Part shown: positions 8,870 through 24,768 of the stretch, piece after piece | Layout: each line of letters starts with the position of its first letter | Position numbering within the stretch: the first letter of the stretch is position 1 | Assembly: GCA_048886185.1 (NCBI GenBank) | Contig: JBHLKY010000003.1 | Location: 1-32,000 of the forward strand | Origin: Candidatus Hermodarchaeota archaeon | Lineage (GTDB): Archaea; Asgardarchaeota; Heimdallarchaeia; Hodarchaeales; Hodarchaeaceae | Direction: 5' to 3' | Length of the DNA stretch: 32,000 nucleotides | Made by a program: the position numbers and the translations under genes | Notes under the pieces: generated by a model | What the model was told of the DNA's origin: nothing | What the model saw: only the letters and a program-made list of their open reading frames with translations | The model's database searches: none

Positions 8870-9085
8870 TTAAGGGCGTTTTAAGTTCCGAGCTTCACGT
8901 TCAGTCTCCCTGAGTAGGAGGGTATCACCTTTTCTTATTGGACCTTTCACATTACGAACTATAATACGTCCACGATCTCTTCCCTCAAGTACTCGGACTC
9001 TAACTTGAGTAATTTCTCCTGTAACACCAGTTCGTCCTATGATTTGTAGAACTTCAGCAGGTATGGAGATTTCTTCCTCGCTCAT
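8870..9085 (-). CDS. rps28e: 30S ribosomal protein S28e
   Basis: [37 protein letters not shown]. Confidence 0.98.
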
Positions 9086-9097
9086 TCAAATCACTCC

Positions 9098-9475
9098 TTA
9101 GATCCCAGCCAATTCTTTTATTCGAACACCTAAGTTGTCAATCTTTGCTTTAACTTCCCCTTCTTTTACAATTGAGCAGCTAGCTGTTTTGACTCCAAGA
9201 TTACACGCTTTCCCAAGCTCTTCCTTAGTAGTTACGTATAGATAAGGAATTTTCTTATCCTTACACAGAAGAGGGAGATGGGCTACTATTTCAGGTGGAT
9301 CCACATCTAACGCAATGAAAACAAGTTTAGCATCACCACGCTCAATACTTTTCGTGGTTTCATTCGTCCCCTTACGGATGTTTGCTGGATCAGTACTGAC
9401 GTTCTCTAATAACGCCAAGGCATCGCTTTCGAGCCCCTCGGGCTGTTCATAATTTACATAAAATGGTTTACTCAT
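9098..9475 (-). CDS. rpl7ae: 50S ribosomal protein L7Ae
   Basis: IRKGTNETTKSIERG, DVDPPEIVAHLPLLC, ELGKACNL; GGAGGT Shine-Dalgarno upstream. Confidence 0.98.
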   Translation of the reverse strand: MSKPFYVNYEQPEGLESDALALLENVSTDPANIRKGTNETTKSIERGDAKLVFIALDVDPPEIVAHLPLLCKDKKIPYLYVTTKEELGKACNLGVKTASCSIVKEGEVKAKIDNLGVRIKELAGI

Positions 9476-9508
9476 AATTTGACGACCTCCAGGGTCTTAT
9501 TTCAGATT
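9434..9508. repeat. Direct repeat copy 1 (75 bp): rpl7ae first 14 codons plus proximal leader
   Basis: Ungapped manual alignment to 10810..10884 gives 67/75 identical bases. Confidence 0.95.
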
Positions 9509-9645
9509 GAATAATCATACCCAATCCTTGGTCGGGCATTCAACCCCGTATTCTGTTCAATTAAATATTTTTACCTTCTCATAATTACTTCGCTTTTACA
9601 TCTTTGAATAAGATTATAAAGATTAAAAGAATATAAGAAATAAGG

Positions 9646-10695
9646 TTGGGGAAGATGACCCAAAAAAATGTTATTAGTCAAGGTAACAACCCAAATTATC
9701 TAAGAGAAGTGTCAAAATCAAACATTGAGAAAAATTTGTTAAGTGCTATACAGATAGAACCAAGAATCATAAAATCGCAAAAAATAGGATCCTTAACATT
9801 ACGGGGAGGTTTAATTGGAACTATTATATCATCCTCATTGATGTCCTTAGCAATAATTAGTATGCCTTTCGATGCTGGTTTTAGAACCCCTTTTAGGTAT
9901 TACCTCGTCAATTTTGGTCTTTATACTGGGATTCTGGGGTTAATTCTATTTACTTTTATTTTCTATCTCGGAGTACTAATCACTTTCTTTAATGAAATTA
10001 AGGCAAAACGAATTAACAGTGTAACCATCAAAAACTTTGTAATAAATAGAAAATTCTTGGTGATTATATCCATAATTGCAGCAAATTGGGCTTTAAGTCT
10101 TATCCCTCAAGTTTTTCTTCTTCCTTTTTACAGTCAGGTTGGTCTATATGGAGGAGCGTCTTCTTTTGCTTTTCCTCTTGAAATTGGTAAAGATTTTGAA
10201 CAGTTCATCTTAATTGAAATCGTTCAGGGAATTTTAGAACATCCCGATCTTGAAACTGGGATATTTGGTAGATTGATTAGGCTAATTGCAATTGGTATAT
10301 TGATTTGTACAGTTTACTCTTTGATTTGGTCATTAATTGAAATTTTCAAGGATTTTAGACATCTGAGCGAAAAGACACCCTATGGAAAAATCGTGCTGGA
10401 TTTATGTTTCAAAGCTCTAATTCTGGTATTATTGATATTTGAGATTATCAGTCCAATCTGGGAATTTGCTGATCCTTCGGGTTTCCAAAGGCTGTGGTGG
10501 TCAGATTTCTTGATAGATCTCTTTATTGCTACTCCTCTCTCGATTTTTATATTACTATTTTTAATAACAGGAAGTTTTACGAATGATTCCTTTGTAATGG
10601 AAGATAAAACAAAGTTTAAATCTAGGTTGGTCTTTTCAATTTCCCTTACATTTTTTATAGTTGGATACTCTTGGTTTTTGGTATATGTATATTGA
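9646..10695 (+). CDS. Uncharacterised polytopic membrane protein
   Basis: 349 aa with roughly 7-8 hydrophobic segments; no family recognised. TTG 9646 or ATG 9655 start. Confidence 0.75.
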   Translation: MGKMTQKNVISQGNNPNYLREVSKSNIEKNLLSAIQIEPRIIKSQKIGSLTLRGGLIGTIISSSLMSLAIISMPFDAGFRTPFRYYLVNFGLYTGILGLILFTFIFYLGVLITFFNEIKAKRINSVTIKNFVINRKFLVIISIIAANWALSLIPQVFLLPFYSQVGLYGGASSFAFPLEIGKDFEQFILIEIVQGILEHPDLETGIFGRLIRLIAIGILICTVYSLIWSLIEIFKDFRHLSEKTPYGKIVLDLCFKALILVLLIFEIISPIWEFADPSGFQRLWWSDFLIDLFIATPLSIFILLFLITGSFTNDSFVMEDKTKFKSRLVFSISLTFFIVGYSWFLVYVY

Positions 10696-10773
10696 GTAAA
10701 CACCCCCAAACACTCGCACGGGATTTTTGCTGATTTAAACTCGACATCTACAGAAATAAGTTGAGGGGCAATC

Positions 10774-10851
10774 CTATGTATTCTCATCAATTCTGCGGTT
10801 TTTACTGTACCCCTCGGGCTGTTCATAATTTAGATAAAACGATTTATTCAT
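10774..10851 (-). pseudogene. Truncated duplicate of the rpl7ae N-terminus (MNKSFYLNYEQPEG then unrelated sequence, 25 aa)
   Basis: 11 of the first 14 residues match L7Ae MSKPFYVNYEQPEG; similarity stops abruptly at 10810; SD decayed from GGAGGT to AGAGTT. Confidence 0.8.
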
Positions 10852-10884
10852 AATTTGACTAACTCTAGGGCCTTATTTCAGATT
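10810..10884. repeat. Direct repeat copy 2 (75 bp)
   Basis: 67/75 identical to 9434..9508, same orientation. Confidence 0.95.
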
Positions 10885-11310
10885 CCAATCTTTAGCCCAA
10901 TTATGTATTTTTTCATTTTTTAAGCAAGGATGATTTCGCTTCAAATAGCTATTAGATCCCAAGATTTAACACAGAAATAGACCAATCTTAGCTGATATGT
11001 AATTTCTTTACCTTCAGGGTACCCTCTCAAACAGAATTCTTCTGAAATGCAAAGAGAGCTTGAAGAATCCCAAGTAAGAGTACTTAATAATGGGAAGTAT
11101 ATGCCTTACAATGTAAAATAAGAGGAAAAAAAGAAATCAAGCTTAATGAAAACAGTAAAAGATTAATTAATGTCTGTTCAGTCTAATATTAAACAGATAA
11201 AATCCATAGTTCCCCCAGAACACAAAGATGGGAAGGTATTTTAAAGCAATGTATAATGTTCCTGTTAATAGGACTTTGAAGTTGAAAAAATTTCCTTTGA
11301 GAGGATAATA

Positions 11311-13455
11311 ATGTCATCAGAAGTTTATGAAAAACTAGGGCTTTCTATTGAGGAGGGGCAGATATATGCAATCATGGCCTCAAAGTTGGTTCGAACCAAG
11401 GAAGAAATAGAATTATTAGCTGAGAAGATTGCACCTCAAGTTGAAAACCTTCTAAAATCATTGGAGGAAAAGAAGTTCATTCGAATGATTCCTGGAAAAG
11501 TACCTCAATATCATGCTTTAGCCCCTCCTATTGCAATCAGTCACCAAATGCATCATCAAGTAGAGACAACATCCTCGGAGTACAATGATGAGATTAACTC
11601 ATATTGGGAACAAGGGCAAATATCCTTGCAATCCATAGTCAATGAGCTACAAGCAGGTGTTAAACAGCTAATAGAATTTAAAAATGGAACCTCTTCGGGT
11701 CTTGAAAAGTTTATTAATCAGGTAGACGGTACCATTAAATCTGAGGAGGAAAGACTTGAAGGAGAGATAAATAAAAACACCCAAGTCCAGAAAGATACCA
11801 TTGAAATTTGTGGGCATACATTTAGTCTAACCTTACAATCTTTATTAAACAAGGATATGTTAAATCTAATAGAGGAAGCTAGAAAGATTCATTCCGATTT
11901 TCGTGAACAATTACAAGATTTTATTGGTAAAATAACAGACGAAACGAAAGAAGAATTTTCAGACAAATTTCAAAACTGGATAAACCAAAGCCTCGAAGAA
12001 ATGGAGGTTGGAATCCCGTCAACTCAAAAACAACGCGATGAAGAACTGACAATTTCAACTGAATATATTGATAAAACTGGAAATAAATTCGAGAAAACGA
12101 TCCTAGAATTCAGTAATCAATTTCCTAAACTTGTTGAGGATTTCACAGCACAACATTCTAATGATTTCAATATTTTAGACAGAAATTTTAAAGGAACCAT
12201 AAATAAAATAAAGAGTCGGTTTCTGGAAATTCAGAATGAGGCGAATAATCGATTAAGTAAACGAGTATCATTTGGGAAAAGTGGATTCGAAGCCATTAAT
12301 AAAATAGTAGACCTTTCAATAAATGAGATTGACACATCATATAAAAGTATTGAAAACCAAATTGAAAATATAATTCAAAATTCAGAGCAAACTAGCTCAT
12401 CTTTAGCGGAAACTGTGACGTCAAATCTAACCAAACAAAATAGGGAATTTCAAGATTTTCTAAGAGAAATTAAATATGATTTAACGGAGGCAATCAACAA
12501 TTCATATGAAAAAACAATTTCTACTCTGCAATCTGTTTCACAGAATATCCGAAATTCATCTTTACAACAAAAAATTATCATTTCTCGGCAAATAAATCAT
12601 TTATCCGAACTTTTGGCCGAAAAGAACCGCTATTATCTTACCACGACCGATCAGGTATTAAATGCCTTTTTTACTCATATCAATACTGAAACTCAAAATC
12701 TGGTTGATCGAATGATCCAGAATGTGAATGATTGTTTAGCTATAACAACAAATACTCTTATTCAATCGGGTCAAACTTATTTTGAAATAATAGAGAGAAA
12801 TCTCTCTTCTATTTTTTCCTCATTAGATTATGAGGTTGAGGATTTAACAACGAAATTAGATAACATTCAAATGAATCTTGAAACTAAAATCAATAATTCT
12901 ATAACGGATGTTAATAATTCAATCTCCACTAATTTCAATCAATCTGTCAAGGCAATTCCAGACAGATTTTCAAAAGGCTTAGCTCAAGGCCAAGAAATAA
13001 TTAATGTATTGCGTGATATTAACACCATGACGCTAAAGATCCCAATTGAACAAATCGAACACACCTATCTCCGAATTGAATCACTAGAAGGTATAACCAA
13101 AATACTTGAGGCAATGTTGGCTCGAACCAAAAGCACCATTCAGATAATCCTCCCTAACATTTCCCTCCTCCCAATTGAAGCAATAAAACAGATAACACGA
13201 CGTAGGATTCAAATATTAACTCAAATTAAATCCTCAGACAATGTAGAGGAACTGAAGGATTTGGATAATGTCCATCTTAAGAGTTTTGACGATCTAGGAC
13301 ATGTGTACGCCATTGCACGAGATGGAACAGAAGAGATTATTATTGGTTCAGGGAAAGATGAAAAAATACCCTTAATTGCTACAATTGATGAGGAACTCGC
13401 AGCTGTACTTAAAGAAATTATTCAGGATTATTGGCCCAGAGGGAGAGCCATCTGA
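11311..13455 (+). CDS. TrmB-like HTH protein with a very long coiled-coil insert and TrmB-like C-terminal domain
   Basis: N-terminal KLGLSIEEGQIY...LKSLEEKKFI...PQYHALAPP matches the TrmB wHTH pattern; about 500 aa Q/E/N/S-rich amphipathic helix; C-terminal alpha/beta domain (AMLARTKSTIQIILP...AIARDGTEEIIIG). Confidence 0.75.
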   Translation: MSSEVYEKLGLSIEEGQIYAIMASKLVRTKEEIELLAEKIAPQVENLLKSLEEKKFIRMIPGKVPQYHALAPPIAISHQMHHQVETTSSEYNDEINSYWEQGQISLQSIVNELQAGVKQLIEFKNGTSSGLEKFINQVDGTIKSEEERLEGEINKNTQVQKDTIEICGHTFSLTLQSLLNKDMLNLIEEARKIHSDFREQLQDFIGKITDETKEEFSDKFQNWINQSLEEMEVGIPSTQKQRDEELTISTEYIDKTGNKFEKTILEFSNQFPKLVEDFTAQHSNDFNILDRNFKGTINKIKSRFLEIQNEANNRLSKRVSFGKSGFEAINKIVDLSINEIDTSYKSIENQIENIIQNSEQTSSSLAETVTSNLTKQNREFQDFLREIKYDLTEAINNSYEKTISTLQSVSQNIRNSSLQQKIIISRQINHLSELLAEKNRYYLTTTDQVLNAFFTHINTETQNLVDRMIQNVNDCLAITTNTLIQSGQTYFEIIERNLSSIFSSLDYEVEDLTTKLDNIQMNLETKINNSITDVNNSISTNFNQSVKAIPDRFSKGLAQGQEIINVLRDINTMTLKIPIEQIEHTYLRIESLEGITKILEAMLARTKSTIQIILPNISLLPIEAIKQITRRRIQILTQIKSSDNVEELKDLDNVHLKSFDDLGHVYAIARDGTEEIIIGSGKDEKIPLIATIDEELAAVLKEIIQDYWPRGRAI

Positions 13456-13753
13456 GAAGCTGGCTTATGAGAGGCCTGATGAATAAAATCATTAAGTAAA
13501 AGCCCTAGCTGGAAACTTTATCATTAGTTTCTACTAAATACTTATTACACAACAGAGTAAATCAAATTTCTTAATCTAAAAACTACATCTAAAGCCACAG
13601 TTTCTTTATATGGCAGAGCTGATAGCAGGGATAGCTATTTTCTAGTATTATATAAAGAATTTAACAGTGTAATCGTTATATCACTTATAATAATCTGTTA
13701 TTATAATAGAATAATAAAAGTTCATCACTTTTTAAAATAAAAATAAGAATTAC

Positions 13754-14257
13754 TTATTGTATATTATTAACATTCTTGGGACGGACGACGATTTTTATGA
13801 AAAACTTATCAACTTCTAGTGTTAATTTAGCTTTCATTATTGGATGCTTTAAGTATTCTTTCTGTGATGGATCAATTATTAATTTAGATTTTATCCGTTT
13901 ATTAATAGTTGCAATTGATGCAACTCCCCCCTCCTCATTTATTGATACACTTAACAATCTATTATCTAAATCAATACTCAACCTTTTGAATACATGTAAT
14001 TTTTTCCGTTTTTTTTTGTATGCTAAGACCACCTTATCTCTAGCTCTTACTACCAAGTTTGCGGGAATGTTATATTTCAACCTAACATCCTTATAAGTCA
14101 AATGATGAAGCGCGACTGAATTAAAACAACCCTCATTATAGGCTATTTCACTAATATAGTTACAAATCTCTCTATAGAGTCTAATGGTATTTTTTAATCT
14201 TGAAAAATCTTCTTCTGTAATCTCCAGTTTCCCTGAAATAATATAATTAGTTTCCAT
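13754..14257 (-). mobile_element. TnpB (IS200/IS605-family) N-terminal half only; RuvC domain absent
   Basis: Typical TnpB N-terminal pattern (GKLE.T.E...L..T..LYREICNYIS; LHHLTYKDVR.KY.I.ANLVVRA; SIDLD.R..S; A.L.....FFIKIVV) ending in a stop where GVDLG would follow; no tnpA and no RuvC remnant seen in the AT-rich downstream DNA. Confidence 0.8.
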
Positions 14258-14464
14258 TCTTCATCACAGAATCCTAAAATTAAGTACCGTCTCTATACTT
14301 GTAACTAGTAAGCTCAATTCTTAGTTCAAATGAAATTTCCTTGAATATTAATTTAAAATTACCATTTATAATGATTATTAAAGGCCTATTGCAAGAACTT
14401 GGATATGATGTTATTCTAGAAATCGTCAATCTAACATTAAAGAAGATCCAGAGGTGTAAGAGAG

Positions 14465-16189
14465 TTACGCAAATTTTAATATGGTTGATCTTTTCGAGAA
14501 TCGTCTAGCTCTATAATCTCTCATTTTTTTCTCTACAAGTGGGTAACCGTTGTCTTCTAAAATCATATTTAGACGATCTACTTCGGATAAAATAGTAAAC
14601 GAATTCGGATCAACCGTTAAACATTTTCCGTCAACAATATTGGTTTGAATTTCACCACATGCTACATCAGATCCCTTCAAATGTGGGGCATCAAGAATTC
14701 CTATTTTAACCGCTCTTGCTAATGTTAATGGATGGATTAAAGGATCTTTAACTGATTCTTCAGATATATTCTGAAGCGCCTGAAAAATCAAGTAAGCGTC
14801 AGATATAAGCTCTAATTTGTACTCCTCAAGCTTTGGATCTAACGCGATTGAAGGTAAACCCCTCACGGAATTTGAAATTACTTTTCGAGCAATTTTAGTA
14901 CTCTCCAGCACATCTTCAGATGTTGCTGCATGATCAGCTTCACAATAGCTGACCACATGGACAATATGAGGTTTAATAAACATAGCCATTTGAATAGAAG
15001 AGGCTAGCTGCCCCATTGCAAGATGAGGATCCTCGGGGAAGCTCAAAAGGCCAGTACGAACCTGACGATAGGTGGTGAAGGTTTCAGTACGTAGACTTTC
15101 TATCAGCTCAGTCTTCGCTAACATTTTCGCTAAATCATATCTAGGTGCTAGACCAATAGGTGTATTAAACATCAGCTGGGAAATATAATTATGTACACCA
15201 GCCATTTTTGCGTTGTACGCTCCTAGGAAGGCTGCTGCAACAGCAATGGCATCAGGGGCGGAACGGAGACTCCAATGATGTGACTCATTGGCTTCAAAAG
15301 GAATATTATGTGCCCCATGCCAGACAATATTTGATTGGTTCTCTATGATTGCTTCTTGTAATGCCCGATTACTTCGACCATCTAATTCAGAATACCAAAA
15401 TAAGGGAGTAGCTCCCCAAGCATTGTTTATCGTGTTTTTAAGCAATTTTGCCATTTTTAGTAAATTTCTGGTACCTGAATAACAGCGTAGTAAAGGGTAA
15501 TTTCCACACCTCGATGCCTTGTAAAAACTAATTAAATCTTCTTTTGAACGGATTGGAACACCTCCTGCTCCCCTTTCGGACTCTTTCATCTTTTCGGGGC
15601 CAAAAAAGTGTTCTTGAAAATTTTGGTCTGGACCTATCGAGATAATATCAATGACTTTTGCTGCTGCTATTGTTTTAATACCGTTTTGGGTTTCCTCAAC
15701 AGAAGGAACACCAAAATGGGCACGTAATAAGGGGTAAGGAGAATAAAATTTTATTCGATCAATTAAATTGATTGGAATGGATTTCTTTTCTTTTGAAGGG
15801 GATAATGAATTCCTTAGGTATTCAATTACATCCCTTTCTGTTGTTTTCCCATTAAAAAGGCGATGGAATATTCCAAACCTTCTAATAGCTTTGCATACAG
15901 GACTTGTACCTCCAAAGATCCACTTTTTCTTTCTCATTTCAGGAGTGATTTTGTCATTAAGTTCCTTTACAATCTCAATACCTGCTTCTGGTGTTAAACG
16001 ATAACTTAAAGCGATTATTTCAGGATCTAATTTATTAATTTCTGTAATAATATTTTCGATTGTATTTGGAGGACGTAAGAACGATGTTTCATAACCTTGT
16101 TCTCGTGCAATTTGCATGAAATTAAATACTCCAGCAACATGAACACAAGAACCTAATGTGGCACATAATATTTTTCTCCTAATGGTCAT
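14465..16189 (-). CDS. Cobalamin-binding domain fused to a TIM-barrel domain (putative B12-dependent mutase, glutamate-mutase S+E-like)
   Basis: DxHxxG-type motif CVHVAG, then ALSYRL and IFGG of the B12 Rossmann domain; C-terminal ~400 aa with QVRTGLLSFP and VVSYCEA that resemble glutamate mutase E motifs (from memory). Confidence 0.7.
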   Translation of the reverse strand: MTIRRKILCATLGSCVHVAGVFNFMQIAREQGYETSFLRPPNTIENIITEINKLDPEIIALSYRLTPEAGIEIVKELNDKITPEMRKKKWIFGGTSPVCKAIRRFGIFHRLFNGKTTERDVIEYLRNSLSPSKEKKSIPINLIDRIKFYSPYPLLRAHFGVPSVEETQNGIKTIAAAKVIDIISIGPDQNFQEHFFGPEKMKESERGAGGVPIRSKEDLISFYKASRCGNYPLLRCYSGTRNLLKMAKLLKNTINNAWGATPLFWYSELDGRSNRALQEAIIENQSNIVWHGAHNIPFEANESHHWSLRSAPDAIAVAAAFLGAYNAKMAGVHNYISQLMFNTPIGLAPRYDLAKMLAKTELIESLRTETFTTYRQVRTGLLSFPEDPHLAMGQLASSIQMAMFIKPHIVHVVSYCEADHAATSEDVLESTKIARKVISNSVRGLPSIALDPKLEEYKLELISDAYLIFQALQNISEESVKDPLIHPLTLARAVKIGILDAPHLKGSDVACGEIQTNIVDGKCLTVDPNSFTILSEVDRLNMILEDNGYPLVEKKMRDYRARRFSKRSTILKFA

Positions 16190-17334
16190 TTCTCTAGTAC
16201 ACTCTCCTGTTTCATTATTTCAATGTAGAATTCATCACCAAGAGTCATATACTCTTTTAGTAAGTAAAATGGGATTCTATGTAGCCTCAATGACTCAATA
16301 GTTCTACCAAGAGATCTATAATCTTTATTAAACATACAATTAGCTAAATTAATAATGGCATCAATGAAAGGAGTTTGAACTTCAGCTTCTTCTCCAAAGC
16401 TAGATAATGGAATTAAACCAGTTGGAATATCTTCAAAGATATACCGGACATCTAAAGTTGATGGTGCCATAACGTTTTGATATTCTCTTGTGTTATGAAT
16501 TGTTTCATATAGATTTTTCCCATTACTTCCATAGACCGAATTCAACCATTTTTGTAATGTAATCGCCCGTACTCCATATGCATCTGCTACCGCAACTCGT
16601 TCATTGTCCATTTTTTCTAAAAAAGAAGCAACAGAGGGAGATATTCCATCAATATAATGTCGATAATTAACTTTTGGATCCTCACATCTAGCGACATTCA
16701 ATAATAATGGAGTAGGATGAAAAATTGCACCAATATTATCAAAAGAAGTGTTTAAAACCGATTCAGTTTCCCAAAAAGCGCTGTGTAGATCTTTCAAGAA
16801 TGGTATAGTTTCGTTATTATCGCAGGATGGAAATGCTGAAACTGGTACTCTTTTTTTTATCCCAGAAATTGTTACTTCGCTTGGTTTTGAACATCGTGAA
16901 ACAAATAGAAGGGATTGAGCTTCTACGACTTGTGGTTTAAACAAGCCATTATTATCTCGTATGGAATTTCTAACTTCAATTGCGCCTCCAGTTCTCCCTG
17001 GATTTAATACAACGATTTGATTATCATCCAAATAAGGAGCAATTCTTGCTGCTATTTCCTTATGTGCATTAGCGGTTGTTACCACCATTATTAACTTACT
17101 TTCTTTAATAACCTCATGAATTGAGGGTGAAACCAAATCAATGTTGAAATGTCCTTCTAATAGTCCTGAGGATATAATACCGTTATTCTCTTTTACACCT
17201 TCAAGAACTGACCTAGACCGATTCCAAATCTTCACTTTATACCCTTTTGATTTTGCATATGCTGCAAAAGCATGTCCTCCATTTCCTAACCCAAGAATAG
17301 ATATAGAGTCATCTTGAATCTTTTCGTTTTTCAT
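16186..17334 (-). CDS. NAD/NADP-dependent opine (octopine/nopaline) dehydrogenase family protein
   Basis: Rossmann ILGLGNGGHAFA, LNPGRTGG, NIGAIFHP, RYIFEDIPTGL. ATG 17334 follows AGGAAGG; the track uses TTG 17352. Confidence 0.88.
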   Translation of the reverse strand: MKNEKIQDDSISILGLGNGGHAFAAYAKSKGYKVKIWNRSRSVLEGVKENNGIISSGLLEGHFNIDLVSPSIHEVIKESKLIMVVTTANAHKEIAARIAPYLDDNQIVVLNPGRTGGAIEVRNSIRDNNGLFKPQVVEAQSLLFVSRCSKPSEVTISGIKKRVPVSAFPSCDNNETIPFLKDLHSAFWETESVLNTSFDNIGAIFHPTPLLLNVARCEDPKVNYRHYIDGISPSVASFLEKMDNERVAVADAYGVRAITLQKWLNSVYGSNGKNLYETIHNTREYQNVMAPSTLDVRYIFEDIPTGLIPLSSFGEEAEVQTPFIDAIINLANCMFNKDYRSLGRTIESLRLHRIPFYLLKEYMTLGDEFYIEIMKQESVLEK

Positions 17335-17532
17335 ACGGATCCTTCCTTTCAAAAAATATAACTATAATCCTTTTATGCTCTTTATTCGCATTTTAAATAA
17401 TTCTAGTCTATTAAAAGCTAATTTAATGTATGATCTATTGCTAAATTGCTGATTATCCCATTAAAAAAAAGAAATTCGGATCAAAAAATCAGTTTCCTAG
17501 GAAATCAGAAAGATTATCTCTTTTCCACTAGC

Positions 17533-17550
17533 TTTATTCATATGAATAAA
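17533..17550. promoter_or_regulatory. Perfect 18-bp palindrome TTTATTCATATGAATAAA, candidate operator
   Basis: Equals its own reverse complement; lies about 200 bp upstream of the opine dehydrogenase start. Confidence 0.4.
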
Positions 17551-17683
17551 CCGAGAAAATTGTTGTAATTCCCTACATAATTAAACGTAATTAAACTTGT
17601 TTATTAATTTTTTGGATTTATTAACTGTAAATATATAAATAAACCTACGACTTCAGTGTGAAAAAGCTATAAAATTTGCATAG

Positions 17684-17695
17684 TTCATATATGAA
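17684..17695. promoter_or_regulatory. Perfect 12-bp palindrome TTCATATATGAA, candidate operator
   Basis: Shares TTCAT/ATGAA half-sites with the palindrome at 17533. Confidence 0.3.
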
Positions 17696-17946
17696 AATAG
17701 CTTAATTTTAATATTAAACTATTTTTTTATGTTTTGGGTAAAAATAAAACCAAAATTGATTTATTTCATATTAAATAATTCTGTATATAATATTGAATAT
17801 TGAAAATGAAAATCATGTGGAAAATAAATGGATAAAAACTACCTATTGTTATATTCGAGCTGATTGGGCTTCCTACACATTGAAGAAATACATTAAGGGG
17901 ACATATATCATCATTTAGTGATCTACCAATGGCTCTCTTCTGTTAA

Positions 17947-19080
17947 TTATTCTCTTGAATAATAGCTTGAGGGTTCAATTCCATGGATTTTCATTAGTTC
18001 AGCTACTTTTCCACTAATTACAAGTGGGGCCTTTTGTAAGTCTGAAAGGTTCCGTGACCCTGTAAGGAAGCAAGCCAACTTAAGCTGATATTCTATTTCC
18101 TCTATTTTTTGTACAACTGCCTCGGTAGAATGTTTCTGAACAACAAATAGAAAGGGAATGGCCATACCACCTGCATCTGCTCCCAACGCAATTAACTTTG
18201 CAATATCCAATCCATTTCTTACTCCACCTGACCCAATGATCACTCCATTAAAATTTTTTATTGCAAGGACTGTACTAAGAGCTGTAGGAACTCCCCAATC
18301 CCAAAACACTTCACCTGTGTTTTTATATTTGGATAAAGTTGTTCGAATTGCTTCTACACCAGCCCATGAGGTTCCTCCAGCTCCTTGAATATCTATTGCT
18401 TTAAACCCCATCTTTTTGATTTGTTTAATGTCATGAATACTGAAACCTGATCCAACCTCCTTGGCAATGACAGGGATGGAACAATTTTGAATCAACTGCT
18501 CTATTTTTTTATGTAATCCACTTAACTGGGTGTCACCTTCAGGTTGAATTGCTTCTTGAAGGGGATTAAAATGGACTGCAAGTGCATCAGCGTCAATCAT
18601 ATCAATGATTTCTTGGAATTGAGATTCAGTCAGTCCTTGCGCGAGCTGCCCTGCTCCAATGTTTCCAATGATAAGTGAACTGGGTGCGTTTTCTCGAACC
18701 ACATTGAAAGATTCCCTCACATCTTCATTCTCTAAAGCTGCCCGCTGACTCCCTATTCCCATACCAATGTTTGTCTGTTCAACGGCTTGAGATAATAATG
18801 CATTGAGTTTGTGTGTGAAACCATGTCCTCCAGTCATCCCTGATATTATCAGTGGAAGAGAGAGTTTCTTATTAAAAATTTTAGCAGAGAGGTCAACCTC
18901 ATCAAGATTTAAATCAGTGGTTGCATGATGGACAAATGAGATATCTTCCAATCCTGTTGTGATGTTTCGGGCTTGAACATCATGTTCCAAGCAAATTTGT
19001 ATGTGAGCCAACTTCCTGTCTGAAGTTAAATCGCCTTTTTTCTCAAGTTTGTTAATTACATCTTTATATTCAGTTTCCAT
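17947..19080 (-). CDS. fni: Type 2 isopentenyl-diphosphate delta-isomerase
   Basis: RKLAHI, GMTGG, GSQRAA, NIGA, HFNPLQE, KEVGSG, GAGGTSW, SGGVRNG. Confidence 0.97.
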   Translation of the reverse strand: METEYKDVINKLEKKGDLTSDRKLAHIQICLEHDVQARNITTGLEDISFVHHATTDLNLDEVDLSAKIFNKKLSLPLIISGMTGGHGFTHKLNALLSQAVEQTNIGMGIGSQRAALENEDVRESFNVVRENAPSSLIIGNIGAGQLAQGLTESQFQEIIDMIDADALAVHFNPLQEAIQPEGDTQLSGLHKKIEQLIQNCSIPVIAKEVGSGFSIHDIKQIKKMGFKAIDIQGAGGTSWAGVEAIRTTLSKYKNTGEVFWDWGVPTALSTVLAIKNFNGVIIGSGGVRNGLDIAKLIALGADAGGMAIPFLFVVQKHSTEAVVQKIEEIEYQLKLACFLTGSRNLSDLQKAPLVISGKVAELMKIHGIEPSSYYSRE

Positions 19081-19300
19081 TGTCTTAATGCTCCTTCAGT
19101 CTTTTTGAACTGAACTTACAAGCAGAAACCTTTGGCACCACCATATCCAGCCCTTCTACTTTCATGTATTTCTGTAATGGTATTCTGATCCTCTAGTTGT
19201 GAATATCAAAAATATTTCTATATGTTATTTGATGCTTTCTTAATCTCTTTTATGAGCATAAAAAAGCCTGTATTCTCTTCGATGAACAGATTAAATAGGT

Positions 19301-19726
19301 TTATTCTTGTTTGAATCTCTTTACGTGCTTTGTAATTGTTGTTGAACTTTTTTCGATATATTTGGATCTATATACATATCCTGGAATCCAGATAACAAAT
19401 CCAAATAATAATCCTAAAAAGAATGTTATTGGGTCGTTCCAAAGAAAGATTTTGTGAAAAATAGTTATAAAAAAAACCAAAAAACCAGATAGAACCCGTA
19501 TGGGATAATGGAGTCTATTTGAAAAAATTTGATGAAGTAAATAAAAAGACAGAATTATGGTGTGACCACTCACTGGAATACTTGTTACAATTCGGATTAA
19601 TGAAAATGTACCGATAATAATACACTCAGTAGACAAAAGAATACGAACATGAATCCCGAGTTTTTTTATCCACATCCAAAGTAGTTCACCCACGAGAATC
19701 CCGAATGGGAAAAATATCGGGATCAT
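19301..19726 (-). CDS. Uncharacterised membrane protein (SGH motif, possibly PAP2-like); frame is open further upstream to 19909
   Basis: Several TM segments, PVSGH and HKIFLWND motifs; 61 extra sense codons upstream without a canonical start. Confidence 0.65.
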   Translation of the reverse strand: MIPIFFPFGILVGELLWMWIKKLGIHVRILLSTECIIIGTFSLIRIVTSIPVSGHTIILSFYLLHQIFSNRLHYPIRVLSGFLVFFITIFHKIFLWNDPITFFLGLLFGFVIWIPGYVYRSKYIEKSSTTITKHVKRFKQE

Positions 19727-19951
19727 GTATATTGGTGGCGAGAAAAGAATTAATGTTTCTGTTGCAGTAATAACAGGTGGGTAACCAACAATATGGAAAT
19801 AAAACCCAGCGATGATAGTTATAAATAATCCAGTGCTATAGACAACTAGTAATTCACCTTTTGGGGAATTATATTCCGATGAAATTACGCTAGACCTCTC
19901 CTCTGATTGTTATCATTTTCCCCCATTAGCATTATCATGAATAATAGTATC

Positions 19952-20524
19952 TCATTTTTCATCTTCGTGCCATCGTTTATATTTCTCATTAGGAATATTC
20001 AAACAGTCTAATACTTTCCCAGTAATGAAATCGAATAAGTCCTGAATAGTTTGAGGTTTGTGATAAAACCCTGGACTTAAAGGAAGAATAATTGCGCCAT
20101 AAGTGGCGAGCTTCGATAAATTCTGGAGACAGGGCGGACTTAGAGGTGTCTCCCGTATTCCAATTATCAAGGGTCGGCGCATTTTGAGCATAATGTCAGC
20201 TGCTCGTGAAATTAAATTCCCAGTATTCGCATTTGCAATGTTACTAACTGTTTTAACCGTAGCGGGTATAATCACCATACCATCGATCAAAGTTGAGCTA
20301 CTAGAAAGGGGAGCATTCATGTCCTTACTATCATAAGATCGAAAAGCTATTTCTTTAATTTCTGCGCTCTTAATACCAACTTCATCATAAAGTACATATT
20401 CAGCCCATTTACTAATAATAACATGAGTTTCAATTTTACTCTCTATCAGAGCTCGGATAACTTCAATTCCGTATTGTATTCCAGAAGCGCCAGTTAAAGC
20501 AACGATTATTCTCTTAGGAACCAT
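19952..20524 (-). CDS. ubiX: Flavin prenyltransferase UbiX
   Basis: ALTGASG, PLSSSS, PATVKT, RETPL, PGFYHKP. Confidence 0.95.
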   Translation of the reverse strand: MVPKRIIVALTGASGIQYGIEVIRALIESKIETHVIISKWAEYVLYDEVGIKSAEIKEIAFRSYDSKDMNAPLSSSSTLIDGMVIIPATVKTVSNIANANTGNLISRAADIMLKMRRPLIIGIRETPLSPPCLQNLSKLATYGAIILPLSPGFYHKPQTIQDLFDFITGKVLDCLNIPNEKYKRWHEDEK

Positions 20525-20635
20525 CAGAATTCACATCGTAATTCTTTGATTCTTTTTATTTCATAAAGTAATTAGTATGATTAATAAAAAAAGAATAGAT
20601 GGATACGATAGGTTGGTGAAAAGGGAAATTAGGAT

Positions 20636-21025
20636 CTAATCCACTTCAACAACGCCAGTATCAGCATCTAGAACTACTTTCGACCCAGAGGTTATTTTTG
20701 TTGTATCTATTTTGTCTACGCAGGGAATTTCACCGATGATACACCCAACAGCTACAATAGCTTCACATTCTTGAAGAATAAGCGCCTTTGGCCCTTTCCC
20801 AGTTTTAGCCATTTGATAGATCACATACGAGCCGACTGTTGACCCTTTACCTGTAGGGAAAACAAGAATCTTGTCTGTTGTGTCTACTCCTTCCAATTCA
20901 TGGCCTTTTTCTACTATAATCCCAGTCTCTGGATCGACTCCACCGTAGAATGAAATACTGTCTTTTGTTACCAGAGCTTCTCCTTCGATCTTTCCTTGAT
21001 AGATTTTTCTACCTGTTAGCTTCAT
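20636..21025 (-). CDS. Phosphomevalonate dehydratase small subunit (AcnX swivel domain, DUF126)
   Basis: ISFYGGVDPETG, GKGSTVGSY; ATGA overlap with the large subunit. Confidence 0.9.
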   Translation of the reverse strand: MKLTGRKIYQGKIEGEALVTKDSISFYGGVDPETGIIVEKGHELEGVDTTDKILVFPTGKGSTVGSYVIYQMAKTGKGPKALILQECEAIVAVGCIIGEIPCVDKIDTTKITSGSKVVLDADTGVVEVD

Positions 21026-22203
21026 TTTAAAGCCTCCTCAATACATTCATCGACAGACATCAGTTTGACCGCAAATTTATTCCTACCTGATCCATAATAG
21101 CACATTTTGGCTGAATCAGAAGCTAAACCATGGAATCGTCCTTTGATTGGAGCGACAACACAGCAAGTATCTGCAGCAATTTTTGCTCCAGAGGTTTCGA
21201 TCATTTTAGTAAAACCCATTCGGTCTGCGATTTGTTTTGTAGGACGAGCTGTGGTTATCCATATCTCTTTCTTTGGATTAACTTTCTTACCTTCAAGTTT
21301 TTTGGCAATATATTCTAATTCTGCAAGAGAAGCGTGTGGACAACCCAAGCTTATGAAATCAATCTCTGTATCTTCGTTGAGATCTGAAATAGCTCTTCTT
21401 ATATCATCTTCAGTTACTTCTGTGGTTTCAGAAGGAATTGCATCAACTCTATCAGGAGTGATACTTTCCATATGGAATAATGCTACTCCTCCATATGTTG
21501 CGTATGAAGCACAAAACGACTTAAGCTCTTCAACAGAAGCTTTGGGAATTCCAGTGATATAGCTAATCTTCTGTCCAAGGCGATCCCCAAGAACTTTACC
21601 TAACGCTCCAAATTGGAATGTTCCGTCAACCTTAGCCTTTACTTCTACTTTGATTTCAGGTTGTCGGTTCTCATCAAGATGAAAGCCATATTCTGGGGTT
21701 TTACCCACAAGAGCTGCACTGAGGGCACTGGGTCCACCTTCTCGATTCGTTCGTGCACCAAGTACAGAGTTTGCATAACAGACAGCACTACTTTCTGACC
21801 ATGCTATATGTTGGCCGTAATGAGGTAGATTACCATAAAGATAAGGAGTGCAACTGCAGGTAGTGATTACACCCATCTTTCCAAATGCGTCAACAACTCT
21901 GTGTTGGTTTTCTGCGAACTCTTCACTGATGGCTAATTTTTTCCATTCTTCAAGATCCATGCCAGCTGGATTAAGTGTAGTAAAAACTCGTACTTTTCCG
22001 TCAATAGCCATTTCAGCTAACCACTCCAAACCAGGTTCGTTTAAATTAGCATAGCTTACTCCAGCAATTTGGACGGATGTAATATCAATCATTCGTTTGG
22101 CGCCATAAATATCTCCAAGAGATATTAAAATTTCCATAGCTTTTTGGGTAGCTTTTCCATACTTTCCTGAAGCCATATCTTGTTCTTCGGAAGTTAATTC
22201 CAT
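21022..22203 (-). CDS. Phosphomevalonate dehydratase large subunit (AcnX, DUF521)
   Basis: QIAGVSY, TTLNP, CSCTPY, WSESSA, GARTNREGG, LGCPHAS, DTC, SAK motifs; mevalonate-pathway context. Confidence 0.92.
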   Translation of the reverse strand: MELTSEEQDMASGKYGKATQKAMEILISLGDIYGAKRMIDITSVQIAGVSYANLNEPGLEWLAEMAIDGKVRVFTTLNPAGMDLEEWKKLAISEEFAENQHRVVDAFGKMGVITTCSCTPYLYGNLPHYGQHIAWSESSAVCYANSVLGARTNREGGPSALSAALVGKTPEYGFHLDENRQPEIKVEVKAKVDGTFQFGALGKVLGDRLGQKISYITGIPKASVEELKSFCASYATYGGVALFHMESITPDRVDAIPSETTEVTEDDIRRAISDLNEDTEIDFISLGCPHASLAELEYIAKKLEGKKVNPKKEIWITTARPTKQIADRMGFTKMIETSGAKIAADTCCVVAPIKGRFHGLASDSAKMCYYGSGRNKFAVKLMSVDECIEEALK

Positions 22204-22218
22204 AATTTTATCTCCTTA

Positions 22219-23526
22219 TTATTCTAAATAATCCTTTAAATCTACTTTAGGAAACTCAGCACGAGCGAAGCTTTTACCTTTGGTAACCAATGGTGCAGTA
22301 AAATCGAATCCAATTTTATTAGTAATTTTGGTTCCAGGTTCAGCACTTGGGTCTAAGCTTGACCCTGGTTCTTTCCCAATATCAACGAGGTCTTTATCAG
22401 CCTGGAAACGGGTAGCCATTGACCATTCGACCTCTAAGGGATTATAAATATCAATATCCTTATCCACCACAAAGACATGTTTACAACTTCTATGGCCTGC
22501 AAAAGCAGCGTGTATAGCTTTCTTTCCATCATCTTCATTCTGTTTATCAATTTTAACGATAGCATGCAACCAAGAAGACCCGCCAGGGTTTACGTTCACA
22601 TCGAGGCATTTGACACCTGCTTCATTCACAGATTTAAAGATCGTAGGTTCGCGTGGCATTCCCATCAGGACTTTATGCTCTAAAGCTCCTGGAACAAGAG
22701 CTTGCCAGATGGGATTCTTTCTGTGAGTAATCTTCTTAACTTCAAAGACTGGTTCGTCTCGGACAATATCATATGTTTCAGTGAGATCGATAAATGGGCC
22801 TTCATCAGAGCGGTCACTCATGAAAACCTTCCCTTCGAGGACTACTTCGCATCCTGCTGGGATCAGAAGGTCCACTGTTTTCGCTTTTGTCACTTCAGTT
22901 TTTGAAAGAGCATTAGCGATTTCCAGTTCGTTGATACCAGTCTTTACAGAGGTTGCAGCAGCAACAAGGATGTTGGGAGTGTTTCCAACACAATAGACTG
23001 CTTCCACTTCTCCTGTTCTCTCTAGAAACTTGTAAAAATCTCGTCCTTTGATTATTCGAGTACTCATCCTATTCTTTTCAAACTGCATTGCACGATGGAA
23101 ATCTAGGTTTTGACCGTACTCGGGATCTTTAGTCACAACAACTGCTGACGAGATATATCGACCTCCGTCTCGTTCGTTGTGTTTTAGAATTGGAAGTCTA
23201 TCGAGATCAACTTCATCCATAATTACCTCTTGACAAGGAGCACCTGTAATTTCCTCTGGTAAGCTTCGGTTGTCAATTGCTGCAGTGAGTTTAGGAATCA
23301 ATTGTGCCGTAGAAATCTTAAAATAATCAGCTATGCTTTCCTTTGTGCAGAACACATTCCCTGCAACCTGAAAATCCGAATATCCCTTCACTTTTTCAAA
23401 TAGAAGTGGAGTTGGTTCTGCTGCCTTTAAAACAGCAGCAGCCTCTATATCGATATTCACCTCCTTACTAATTTTAGTAATTAATCCCCTTTTACTAAGA
23501 TTTGCTAGATATTCACGAAAATACAT
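22219..23526 (-). CDS. UbiD-family decarboxylase, probable anhydromevalonate phosphate decarboxylase
   Basis: ERDGGRYI, FHR, EGPFIDLTETYD, VDKDIDIYN...W..ATRFQ, KIGFD; located between mvk and acnX. Confidence 0.9.
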   Translation of the reverse strand: MYFREYLANLSKRGLITKISKEVNIDIEAAAVLKAAEPTPLLFEKVKGYSDFQVAGNVFCTKESIADYFKISTAQLIPKLTAAIDNRSLPEEITGAPCQEVIMDEVDLDRLPILKHNERDGGRYISSAVVVTKDPEYGQNLDFHRAMQFEKNRMSTRIIKGRDFYKFLERTGEVEAVYCVGNTPNILVAAATSVKTGINELEIANALSKTEVTKAKTVDLLIPAGCEVVLEGKVFMSDRSDEGPFIDLTETYDIVRDEPVFEVKKITHRKNPIWQALVPGALEHKVLMGMPREPTIFKSVNEAGVKCLDVNVNPGGSSWLHAIVKIDKQNEDDGKKAIHAAFAGHRSCKHVFVVDKDIDIYNPLEVEWSMATRFQADKDLVDIGKEPGSSLDPSAEPGTKITNKIGFDFTAPLVTKGKSFARAEFPKVDLKDYLE

Positions 23527-23551
23527 TTTTTCACACCTTTGTCACTGTAAA

Positions 23552-24493
23552 TTATACTCCGATAAGAGTTTTCCACGCGGGATGCCCCGCGTCTTTTAAT
23601 GCGTTGTATACTTTGTTTTGAAGTCCAGAACTAGGAGTTAATGCAATAATATTTCCTCCACGACCAGTACCAGTGACCTTGGCCCCTAAGGCACCGTTAT
23701 CCCTTGCAAGTTTGACCATTTTATCCAAAACATCATTTGATACCGTGATGTCCTGAAGTAGTTTGTGATTCTTATTCATAAGTTGTCCGACTTTCTCTAA
23801 TTCCATCTTTTCTAGTGCTTCGCGACCTGATTCGATTACTTCTTGATATTCTTTAACTATCCCCTCGAACCACGCAGGATCCTCCTCCTTCTTTTTCCGA
23901 ACGTCTGCAACGACTTCTGCGGTGTTAGCTGTCATTCCTGAGCTAGCAATCACTAATTCAATGGGTTTTTCCAGTTTGATTGTTTCGATTGTATTGGAGC
24001 TCCCCTCAAGATTTCGTATAAAATAAACCAAACCACCAAATGTTGACGCGGTATTATCTATCCCACTAGGAGTTCCATGATACCCCTTTTCTCCTTCATA
24101 GGCAGCATTATTTATTTTTGTGTCATCCCATCCAAGGTTAAATTCATCGTTAATGGCTCTCGCCAGTGAAACACAACTTGCTGCAGAAGCCCCGACACCG
24201 CTAGCACAAACAAGATCTCCCCCAAAGGTTATTTTCAGGGCTTTATCCTCTAAGTTAATTCCCATAAAATCTATGATGTTTTTGATCGATTCTTTCTGTT
24301 CATCAAACTTCTTTTTCTTATACCCAGGAACTTCAGGACGGTTATCATTCAGCTCATAACCTGTCCCATCTTTAGATTCAACGATACATGTGGTACTATC
24401 ACCTATTGCGGATGCGAGTGCTGGTACACCATATACCACAAAATGTTCTCCAAATAAAATTGTTTTTCCATAACCAGATCCTTCACCAGCCAT
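23552..24493 (-). CDS. mvk: Mevalonate kinase
   Basis: GKTILFGEHFVVYG, GVGASAAS, PSGIDN, KVTGTGRGG. ATG 24493 follows GGTGGA; the track uses GTG 24505. Confidence 0.93.
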   Translation of the reverse strand: MAGEGSGYGKTILFGEHFVVYGVPALASAIGDSTTCIVESKDGTGYELNDNRPEVPGYKKKKFDEQKESIKNIIDFMGINLEDKALKITFGGDLVCASGVGASAASCVSLARAINDEFNLGWDDTKINNAAYEGEKGYHGTPSGIDNTASTFGGLVYFIRNLEGSSNTIETIKLEKPIELVIASSGMTANTAEVVADVRKKKEEDPAWFEGIVKEYQEVIESGREALEKMELEKVGQLMNKNHKLLQDITVSNDVLDKMVKLARDNGALGAKVTGTGRGGNIIALTPSSGLQNKVYNALKDAGHPAWKTLIGV

Positions 24494-24768
24494 TTTTTCC
24501 ACCAAATCCTTATTTCTATAAAATTCATCTGATTTTTTTTGTCTTTTATTGTTTTCTAAGAGAAGCTAAAAAACTCTTCTAACTTTGATTAGCAATATAA
24601 AATCCTTTTTGTCAGCATCCTGTTCCAGATCAGTCTTATAATTAATACTTATAACTAAATATGAACGCTTTTAGCCAAATGAGTATAGGTGTATAGTTAA
24701 AGTAGAATTCTAGGAGAATTTGGTATTGAAGAAATATTGAAATAACTCTCATTAGTACTCTAAAACAT

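Follow-up and report, generated by a model that had tools for sequence, protein, structure and literature searches.

Can the half of TnpB that reads DNA persist once the half that cuts it has been lost? The question is raised by a short gene on the minus strand of the window (the whole 32,000-nucleotide stretch of archaeal DNA analysed), whose product resembles the N-terminal lobe of TnpB and stops where the RuvC nuclease should begin. Inactivated TnpB and Cas12 proteins that were exapted have a mutated or C-terminally shortened RuvC and keep the bilobed fold as well as a guide RNA encoded next to them (PMC10691335, PMC13622181). As described, TldR, Cas12k, Cas12m, sigma-associated dCas12f and Fanzor all retain the bilobed fold, because RuvC helps to hold the guide RNA. 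The first-pass annotation stated that known nuclease-dead derivatives keep an inactivated RuvC fold, as TldR, dCas12f and Cas12k indeed do. Under the headline of a possible RNA-guided DNA binder, it left the choice for this gene between a distinct exapted class and a recent deletion.

The open reading frame is intact: it starts with ATG, runs for 167 codons without interruption and closes with TAA. The SD-like GTGATG in front of it belongs to an extended motif, TGATGAAGA, which recurs before the ATG of most close orthologues. The annotation had described this reading frame accurately, leaving only its minus strand unstated, and was equally correct about the 207-bp gap to the co-oriented B12-binding and opine-dehydrogenase genes. 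The features of the locus are as follows.

13754..14257, minus strand: coding sequence of a stand-alone TnpB WED+REC lobe, 167 aa, pI 9.8 (open reading frame, phmmer and predicted fold)
14262..14267, minus strand: SD-like GTGATG, 6 nt before the ATG (-12..-7) (sequence reading; function presumed)
14258..14464, minus strand: upstream intergenic region, 207 bp, presumed site of the gene's own promoter
14306..14340, minus strand: decayed relic of a hydantoinase-A 3' end, '...YGNLIITKD*' in relatives (flank comparison)
13456..13753, minus strand: downstream intergenic region, 298 bp, AT-rich
14465..16189, minus strand: upstream, co-oriented gene of a 574-aa B12-binding-domain protein, a non-conserved partner
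16186..17352, minus strand: co-oriented gene of the opine/octopine dehydrogenase family
11311..13455, plus strand: convergent gene of a 714-aa protein with an N-terminal TrmB-like HTH, downstream after 298 bp

Comparison of orthologue flanks found no family-wide conserved sequence in the upstream intergenic region (14258..14464) except the hydantoinase relic and the SD-like motif. The relic was left behind when hydAB, which stood between the B12 gene and the short one, was deleted; a hydA 3'-end remnant of 35-60 nt also precedes the short gene in three other loci that lack hydAB (L007, L009 and L010). In L006 and L020, hydA has an in-frame stop close to the gene end. The TrmB-like HTH of the 714-aa protein scores below the Pfam cut-off, and the middle part of this protein is long, helical and apolipoprotein-like; its gene lies beside the short gene in no other locus examined. 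Elsewhere in the window, positions 17947-24505 (minus strand) carry an archaeal cluster of the modified-mevalonate-pathway type, syntenic across the genus, with genes for a GHMP kinase, a UbiD-like decarboxylase, the large and small subunits of AcnX, a flavoprotein and an FMN-dependent dehydrogenase. A search for IS ends or terminal repeats around 13754..14257 returned chance-level matches only, in line with the annotation's remark that no clear IS ends are visible. Sigma-70 promoter and terminator scans, whose models are unsuited to archaea, did not exceed shuffle expectation, and no CRISPR array was found in positions 9000-19000 of the window.

Sequence and fold together confirm that the 167-aa protein is the WED+REC lobe of a TnpB, lacking the RuvC half. 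Pfam gave no significant family for this protein or for any of the 17 family members (PF01385 in 0 of 17, and no PF07282). TIGR01765 (tspaseT_teng_N, the TnpB N-terminal domain) matches residues 7-72 with 27 bits (E 3.4e-6), short of its 47.25-bit cut-off, and matches 15 of the 17 family members (best E 4.2e-8), again below the curated cut-off; the score is thus under the trusted level, yet the homology is clear. An exhaustive phmmer search of 1.8 billion representatives returned 569 matches, among them full-length TnpBs of 366-392 aa, whose own residues ~4-159 align to residues 4-158 of the query and which carry PF01385 (OrfB_IS605) and PF07282 (Cas12f1-like TNB). A word-indexed search for longer homologues found none, a limit of its sensitivity, since the exhaustive search did find full-length relatives. 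The closest of these, P0018 (389 aa), is 45% identical to the short protein over its residues 1-172. From residue 173 onward, P0018 continues with the GVDVG of RuvC-I, and the window's protein terminates one residue short of that position, so the annotation had placed the boundary exactly.

A profile search against PDB sequences gave no TnpB match, so homology to solved structures is visible only by fold. The AlphaFold2 model, built from the family alignment (pLDDT 89.3, pTM 0.83), is laid out as one strand (residues 5-12), three REC helices (15-42, 47-62 and 66-82) and then a six-strand barrel with one helix (WED strands, 94-158). In Foldseek, each of the best 27 PDB matches of this model is a Cas12f, a TnpB or a Cas12k, and TM reaches 0.81. 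VIA-align gives Z 13-16 against the N-lobes of Cas12f, TnpB and Cas12k, including 15.6 for SpCas12f1; against ISDra2 TnpB, Z is 13.4-13.7, and model residues 2-167 fall on chain residues 2-182, the WED+REC lobe. The TnpB/Cas12f-like N-terminal lobe read from the letters by the annotation is thereby borne out by TIGR01765, by phmmer and by fold, the last through the very comparison with ISDra2 TnpB and Cas12f that it had suggested. All orthologues are basic (pI 9.4-10.1), and the invariant positions, rich in K, R, N, H and Y, lie on REC helices 2-3 and on the WED strands. A homodimer prediction for the protein scored 0.00, which carries no weight either way.

The same truncated form recurs in related genomes. 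In a 90%-clustered protein database, the family comprises 17 clusters, the query's included, with representatives of 144-169 aa; the 16 further clusters are 55-81% identical to the query, all have the same C-terminal end, and their source MAGs are labelled Hodarchaeota, Heimdallarchaeota or Promethearchaeota. With metagenome and genome loci added, at least 12 distinct coding sequences were assembled. Each of the 12 has an intact frame and stops no more than a few codons away from one boundary, with stop codons that vary; their mutual identities of 51-90% exclude that they are assembly duplicates of one population. For pairs with dS<1, Nei-Gojobori dN/dS falls in the range 0.08-0.29, and codon bootstraps of five pairs place the 95% upper limits at 0.26-0.48. 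In a maximum-likelihood tree of N-lobes (quick search), all 19 short forms make up one clade (SH-aLRT 99) on a long stem, placed within the full-length TnpBs and adjacent to P0018 and P0025, which points to a single truncation event followed by diversification.

Could the gene nonetheless be a recent deletion product, a decaying pseudogene without function or a chance reading frame? Its presence within the genus is patchy, as detailed below, and short 'transposase fragment' clusters of the same fold are common: the ESM Atlas contains bacterial clusters of 176-190 aa that share this WED+REC fold without a Pfam family in common, so truncated lobes as such are frequent. These clusters have 64-226 members and come from Bacillota and Cyanobacteriota. 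Set against 12 distinct intact orthologues that diverge down to 51% identity and share one boundary, a dN/dS far below 1, a single clade and conserved synteny, a functionless remnant is scarcely credible. What is new in the short gene is its fixation, single origin and purifying selection, not truncation as such. Of the two outcomes that the annotation had left open, the search for homologues with the same C-terminal boundary therefore favours the exapted class: the breakpoint is not unique to this genome, at least 12 orthologues form one clade at a fixed locus, and purifying selection is present. We regard the short gene as very probably a selected, functional gene derived from TnpB.

The gene is also immobile and inherited vertically as a fixed chromosomal locus. 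No genome that carries it has more than one copy, the window's own (4.84 Mb, 96% complete) included, and the GC3 of the gene, 0.26, falls among the 0.22-0.28 of its neighbours. Two blocks flank it at all loci with enough flanking sequence. The first comprises the modified-mevalonate and FMN-dehydrogenase genes together with an opine-DH/B12/hydantoinase or acetyltransferase cassette; the second comprises histone, FKBP, ribosomal S26e/L7Ae and Asn-synthase genes. The immediate neighbours vary: the upstream gene encodes a B12-binding protein, hydantoinase A or an acetyltransferase, and the downstream gene differs in identity and orientation. Since the upstream gene differs between orthologous loci, the 'operon' with opine DH and B12 genes proposed from the window is not conserved. 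The divergence of the short gene tracks that of hydantoinase A (69% versus 66% identity in L004, 58% versus 54% in L025) and is somewhat faster than that of some neighbours (61% versus 80% for the FMN-dependent dehydrogenase in L018). Of the 22 species genomes of one GTDB genus, 7 have the short gene, as against 0 of 61 other genomes of the class, and this patchy, narrow presence indicates that it is dispensable in many relatives. Members of the genus without it have the opine-DH/B12 genes in a different context. At several loci, an AT-rich conserved element of ~35 nt, AAAACTTTAAAAAT...AATTTCATATATGAAG, lies ~190 nt upstream of the histone genes and ~270-300 nt past the short-gene stop (L004:7050-7090, L018/L011, L024 and L020/L006); it is absent from the window. 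This element resembles a BRE/TATA promoter that has a long leader, or else a small RNA.

What happened to the nuclease half? A tblastn search with the RuvC/TNB half of P0018 (residues 173-389) matched every full-length locus and no short-form locus, which agrees with the annotation's observation that no RuvC remnant lies downstream. Neither PF07282 nor PF01385 occurs in the window's genome, and the P0018 RuvC/TNB half finds no match there, so this genome contains neither a split gene nor a resident full-length partner. A split TnpB with RuvC encoded elsewhere was accordingly rejected, as neither the Pfam nor the RuvC-half searches found anything in this genome.

The guide RNA can be followed in the same way. 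The omega-RNA scaffold of IS200/IS605 elements terminates at the element's right end. The full-length copies closest to the short gene (in L026, L040 and L027) are tnpB-only elements of ~1.23 kb, whose mutual similarity extends from 54 nt ahead of the ATG to 9 nt past the stop (TAG TTGACA). A right end only 9 nt past the stop places the scaffold inside the 3' part of the open reading frame, the part that was lost with RuvC. The copies themselves (L026:3947-5176, L040:1161-2390 and L027:905-1352) have clean ends and are usable to derive TAM and guide. When the 3' region of the L026 and L040 elements was searched by blastn against the window's genome for the ancestral omega-RNA, it returned noise (best E 0.21). 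Next to the short gene, flank comparison, folding and Rfam found no conserved or structured RNA. The downstream intergenic region (13456..13753, minus strand) folds no better than shuffles (z -0.43), Rfam has no match in the whole window, and the short-gene flanks share no family-wide sequence beyond the hydA relic and, at some loci, the promoter-like element before the histone genes. The gap downstream of the short gene is only 13 bp in L019 and 62 bp in L002. A look-up of sequencing runs that contain the locus listed just four DNA runs of sediment metagenomes, all of one study and probably the assembly's source, and no RNA run.

The structures of ISDra2 TnpB indicate what the retained lobe could still do. 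The TAM duplex is held in a cleft formed by WED and REC alone, the omega-RNA scaffold lies on WED and RuvC, and the heteroduplex occupies a channel between WED, REC and RuvC. RuvC contacts stem 1, the triple helix and stems 2-3 and provides half of the pseudoknot clamp and of the heteroduplex channel, and WED contacts stem 4 and the pseudoknot (PMC10097598). The TAM contacts in ISDra2 are Y52, S56, K76, F77, Q80, T123 and N124. From this comparison, the short protein appears to retain the complete DNA-duplex-reading cleft and only part of the surfaces that hold RNA.

These data bear directly on the possibility that the protein is a TldR-like, nuclease-free RNA-guided binder, which would use an omega-RNA-like guide encoded elsewhere to repress a complementary promoter. 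Dead relatives of TnpB and Cas12, such as TldR, Cas12k and dCas12f, do still bind DNA in an RNA-guided manner; the contacts of WED with stem 4 and the pseudoknot in TnpB mean that the short lobe may bind RNA; and in one cryo-EM state of ISDra2 (8ex9), the 166-residue N-lobe is the sole part ordered on RNA and DNA. Against this, all of the RuvC contacts listed above are gone, the ancestral scaffold-coding segment is deleted and its 3' counterpart in relatives is absent from the genome by blastn, and the flanks, with gaps as short as 13 and 62 bp, carry neither conserved sequence, nor an Rfam match, nor an unusual fold. In addition, a sliding synonymous-site analysis found synonymous variation to be uniform along the coding sequence, with no embedded constrained element. 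We therefore consider RNA guidance unlikely. The annotation's headline is left unsupported on two counts: the part of the gene coding for omega-RNA was deleted along with RuvC, with no conserved or structured RNA beside the gene, and RuvC supplies much of the scaffold-binding surface of TnpB (PMC10097598). A guide-independent binder of double-stranded DNA is preferred because the cleft is kept, the RNA surfaces are partial, the cognate RNA gene is lost and the orthologues are basic. Guide-free DNA binding, as judged from this structural comparison, is a plausible mode of action, though one that we rate a little short of probable.

A free lobe might instead act against transposons, competing with incoming TnpBs for TAM-flanked sites or for omega-RNA in a dominant-negative fashion, as the annotation had also suggested. 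The short form descended from such elements, and full-length TnpBs occur beside it or in its place in five genomes of the genus (G051, G065, G054, G062 and G064). The resident full-length copies are distant, however (E 1e-7 to 1e-14 against the family profile), and both the window's genome and the closed genome G058 carry the short gene with no detectable full-length TnpB, which weakens the dominant-negative idea. A stable locus under steady purifying selection would also be unusual for an arms-race gene. Taken together, an anti-TnpB factor seems decidedly improbable.

A second stand-alone TnpB N-lobe that ends before RuvC-I bears on whether the short protein could be a targeting module. This lobe has two known members, P0024 (170 aa) and P0167 (193 aa), which are 82% identical to each other and 35% identical to the window's protein, and it occupies a separate branch of the tree. 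Directly downstream of it lies an HNH-nuclease gene (267-269 aa, with zinc fingers), which overlaps the lobe gene by 4 nt in L039. The two pairs, at L039:8001-9319 and L049:5001-6393, are located on contigs with many small unknown open reading frames, whose gene content makes them look like putative archaeal viral contigs. Lobe and HNH protein may form a two-gene module. The HNH partner was also considered as a disguised RuvC half, and this was rejected because its similarity is zinc-finger-like only. The pair resembles the window's gene in having a stand-alone N-lobe and differs from it in lying on a mobile or viral contig and in being coupled to HNH. By analogy with this independent RuvC-less lobe, the short protein could recruit a separately encoded effector, such as a nuclease, to DNA. 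The short-gene orthologues share no conserved neighbour, however, and we give such recruitment very little chance.

How does the short protein compare with the systems already described? Its lobe is homologous to the WED+REC lobe of TnpB (ISDra2, PDB 8EXA/8H1J; P0018), and the short form is nested in the TnpB tree; it lacks RuvC, TNB or C-terminal domain, the 3' segment coding for omega-RNA and the IS ends, and in contrast to mobile TnpB genes, it is single-copy, at a fixed syntenic locus and under host-like selection. TldR is likewise a domesticated, immobilised, nuclease-free TnpB derivative that keeps REC and WED. TldR, however, preserves a degenerate, C-terminally shortened RuvC that still holds guide RNA, whereas the short protein has no RuvC lobe (bioRxiv 10.1101/2023.11.30.569447, PMC13622181). 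TldR genes also stand next to a gRNA gene and are linked to a target operon, whereas no adjacent RNA or constant neighbour was found for the short gene, and TldR is bacterial while the short gene is archaeal. The short gene lacks the RuvC, TNB and mobility of TnpB as well as the RuvC fold and linked target of TldR, and neither a 3' omega-RNA nor an adjacent gRNA was found for it; it is derived from TnpB and is a member of neither group.

In sigma-factor-associated dCas12f, Cas12k and Cas12m, the TnpB scaffold was also repurposed for binding without cutting, but these proteins keep the bilobed architecture with a mutated RuvC, whereas the short protein is one lobe only (PMC10691335). Cas12f (type V-F) has a RuvC nuclease and an adjacent CRISPR array, and the short gene has neither. 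Another structural counterpart is the second protomer of the Cas12f dimer (8DZJ_B, 7WJU_B), in which only an N-lobe of ~200 residues is ordered and which superposes on the model with an rmsd of 2.2-2.3 A over 154-155 residues. These protomers are nevertheless full-length chains in a dimer on sgRNA, whereas the genome of the short protein has no full-length partner, and no CRISPR array lies near the gene. No account of a conserved WED+REC lobe standing alone turned up in full-text literature searches, and the kind of domestication that a kept, RuvC-less lobe represents has not been described for the TnpB family.

We used all of these observations to assemble a single account of the gene, which on balance we consider probable: it would be all that is left of a tnpB-only IS200/IS605-type element, now immobilised, exapted and encoding a nuclease-free and probably guide-free DNA binder. 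One deletion in the ancestor of a Heimdallarchaeia (Hodarchaeales-like) Asgard genus would have cut tnpB at the WED/RuvC linker, removing RuvC, TNB, the 3' segment of the reading frame, in which the omega-RNA scaffold was encoded, and the element's right end. The remaining 167-aa WED+REC lobe would since have been passed down vertically, kept by purifying selection as a single-copy chromosomal gene. The small basic protein, unable to cut, would bind double-stranded DNA without a guide through its TAM-duplex cleft. We infer from these properties a role as a DNA-binding regulator that recognises a short motif, or as a chromatin-associated factor.

The survival of the lobe alone under purifying selection would mean that the TAM/PAM-reading half of TnpB can fold and serve by itself. 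If the account above is correct, the gene represents a new end-point of domestication, a protein-only DNA binder made out of an RNA-guided nuclease, and offers a natural 167-aa scaffold in which PAM/TAM recognition could be studied or engineered in isolation. A broader generalisation is more tentative still, and we hold it as possible rather than probable: the WED+REC lobe may be an autonomous, evolvable module that became a protein-only, sequence-specific DNA binder in this Asgard genus, possibly a regulator or chromatin-associated protein in view of the histone genes next to it, and was coupled to an HNH nuclease as an independent copy in putative archaeal viruses, together forming a new class of RuvC- and guide-free exaptation. 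The host group, Heimdallarchaeia, comprises the archaea closest to eukaryotes, in which transitions from transposon to host gene are of special interest.
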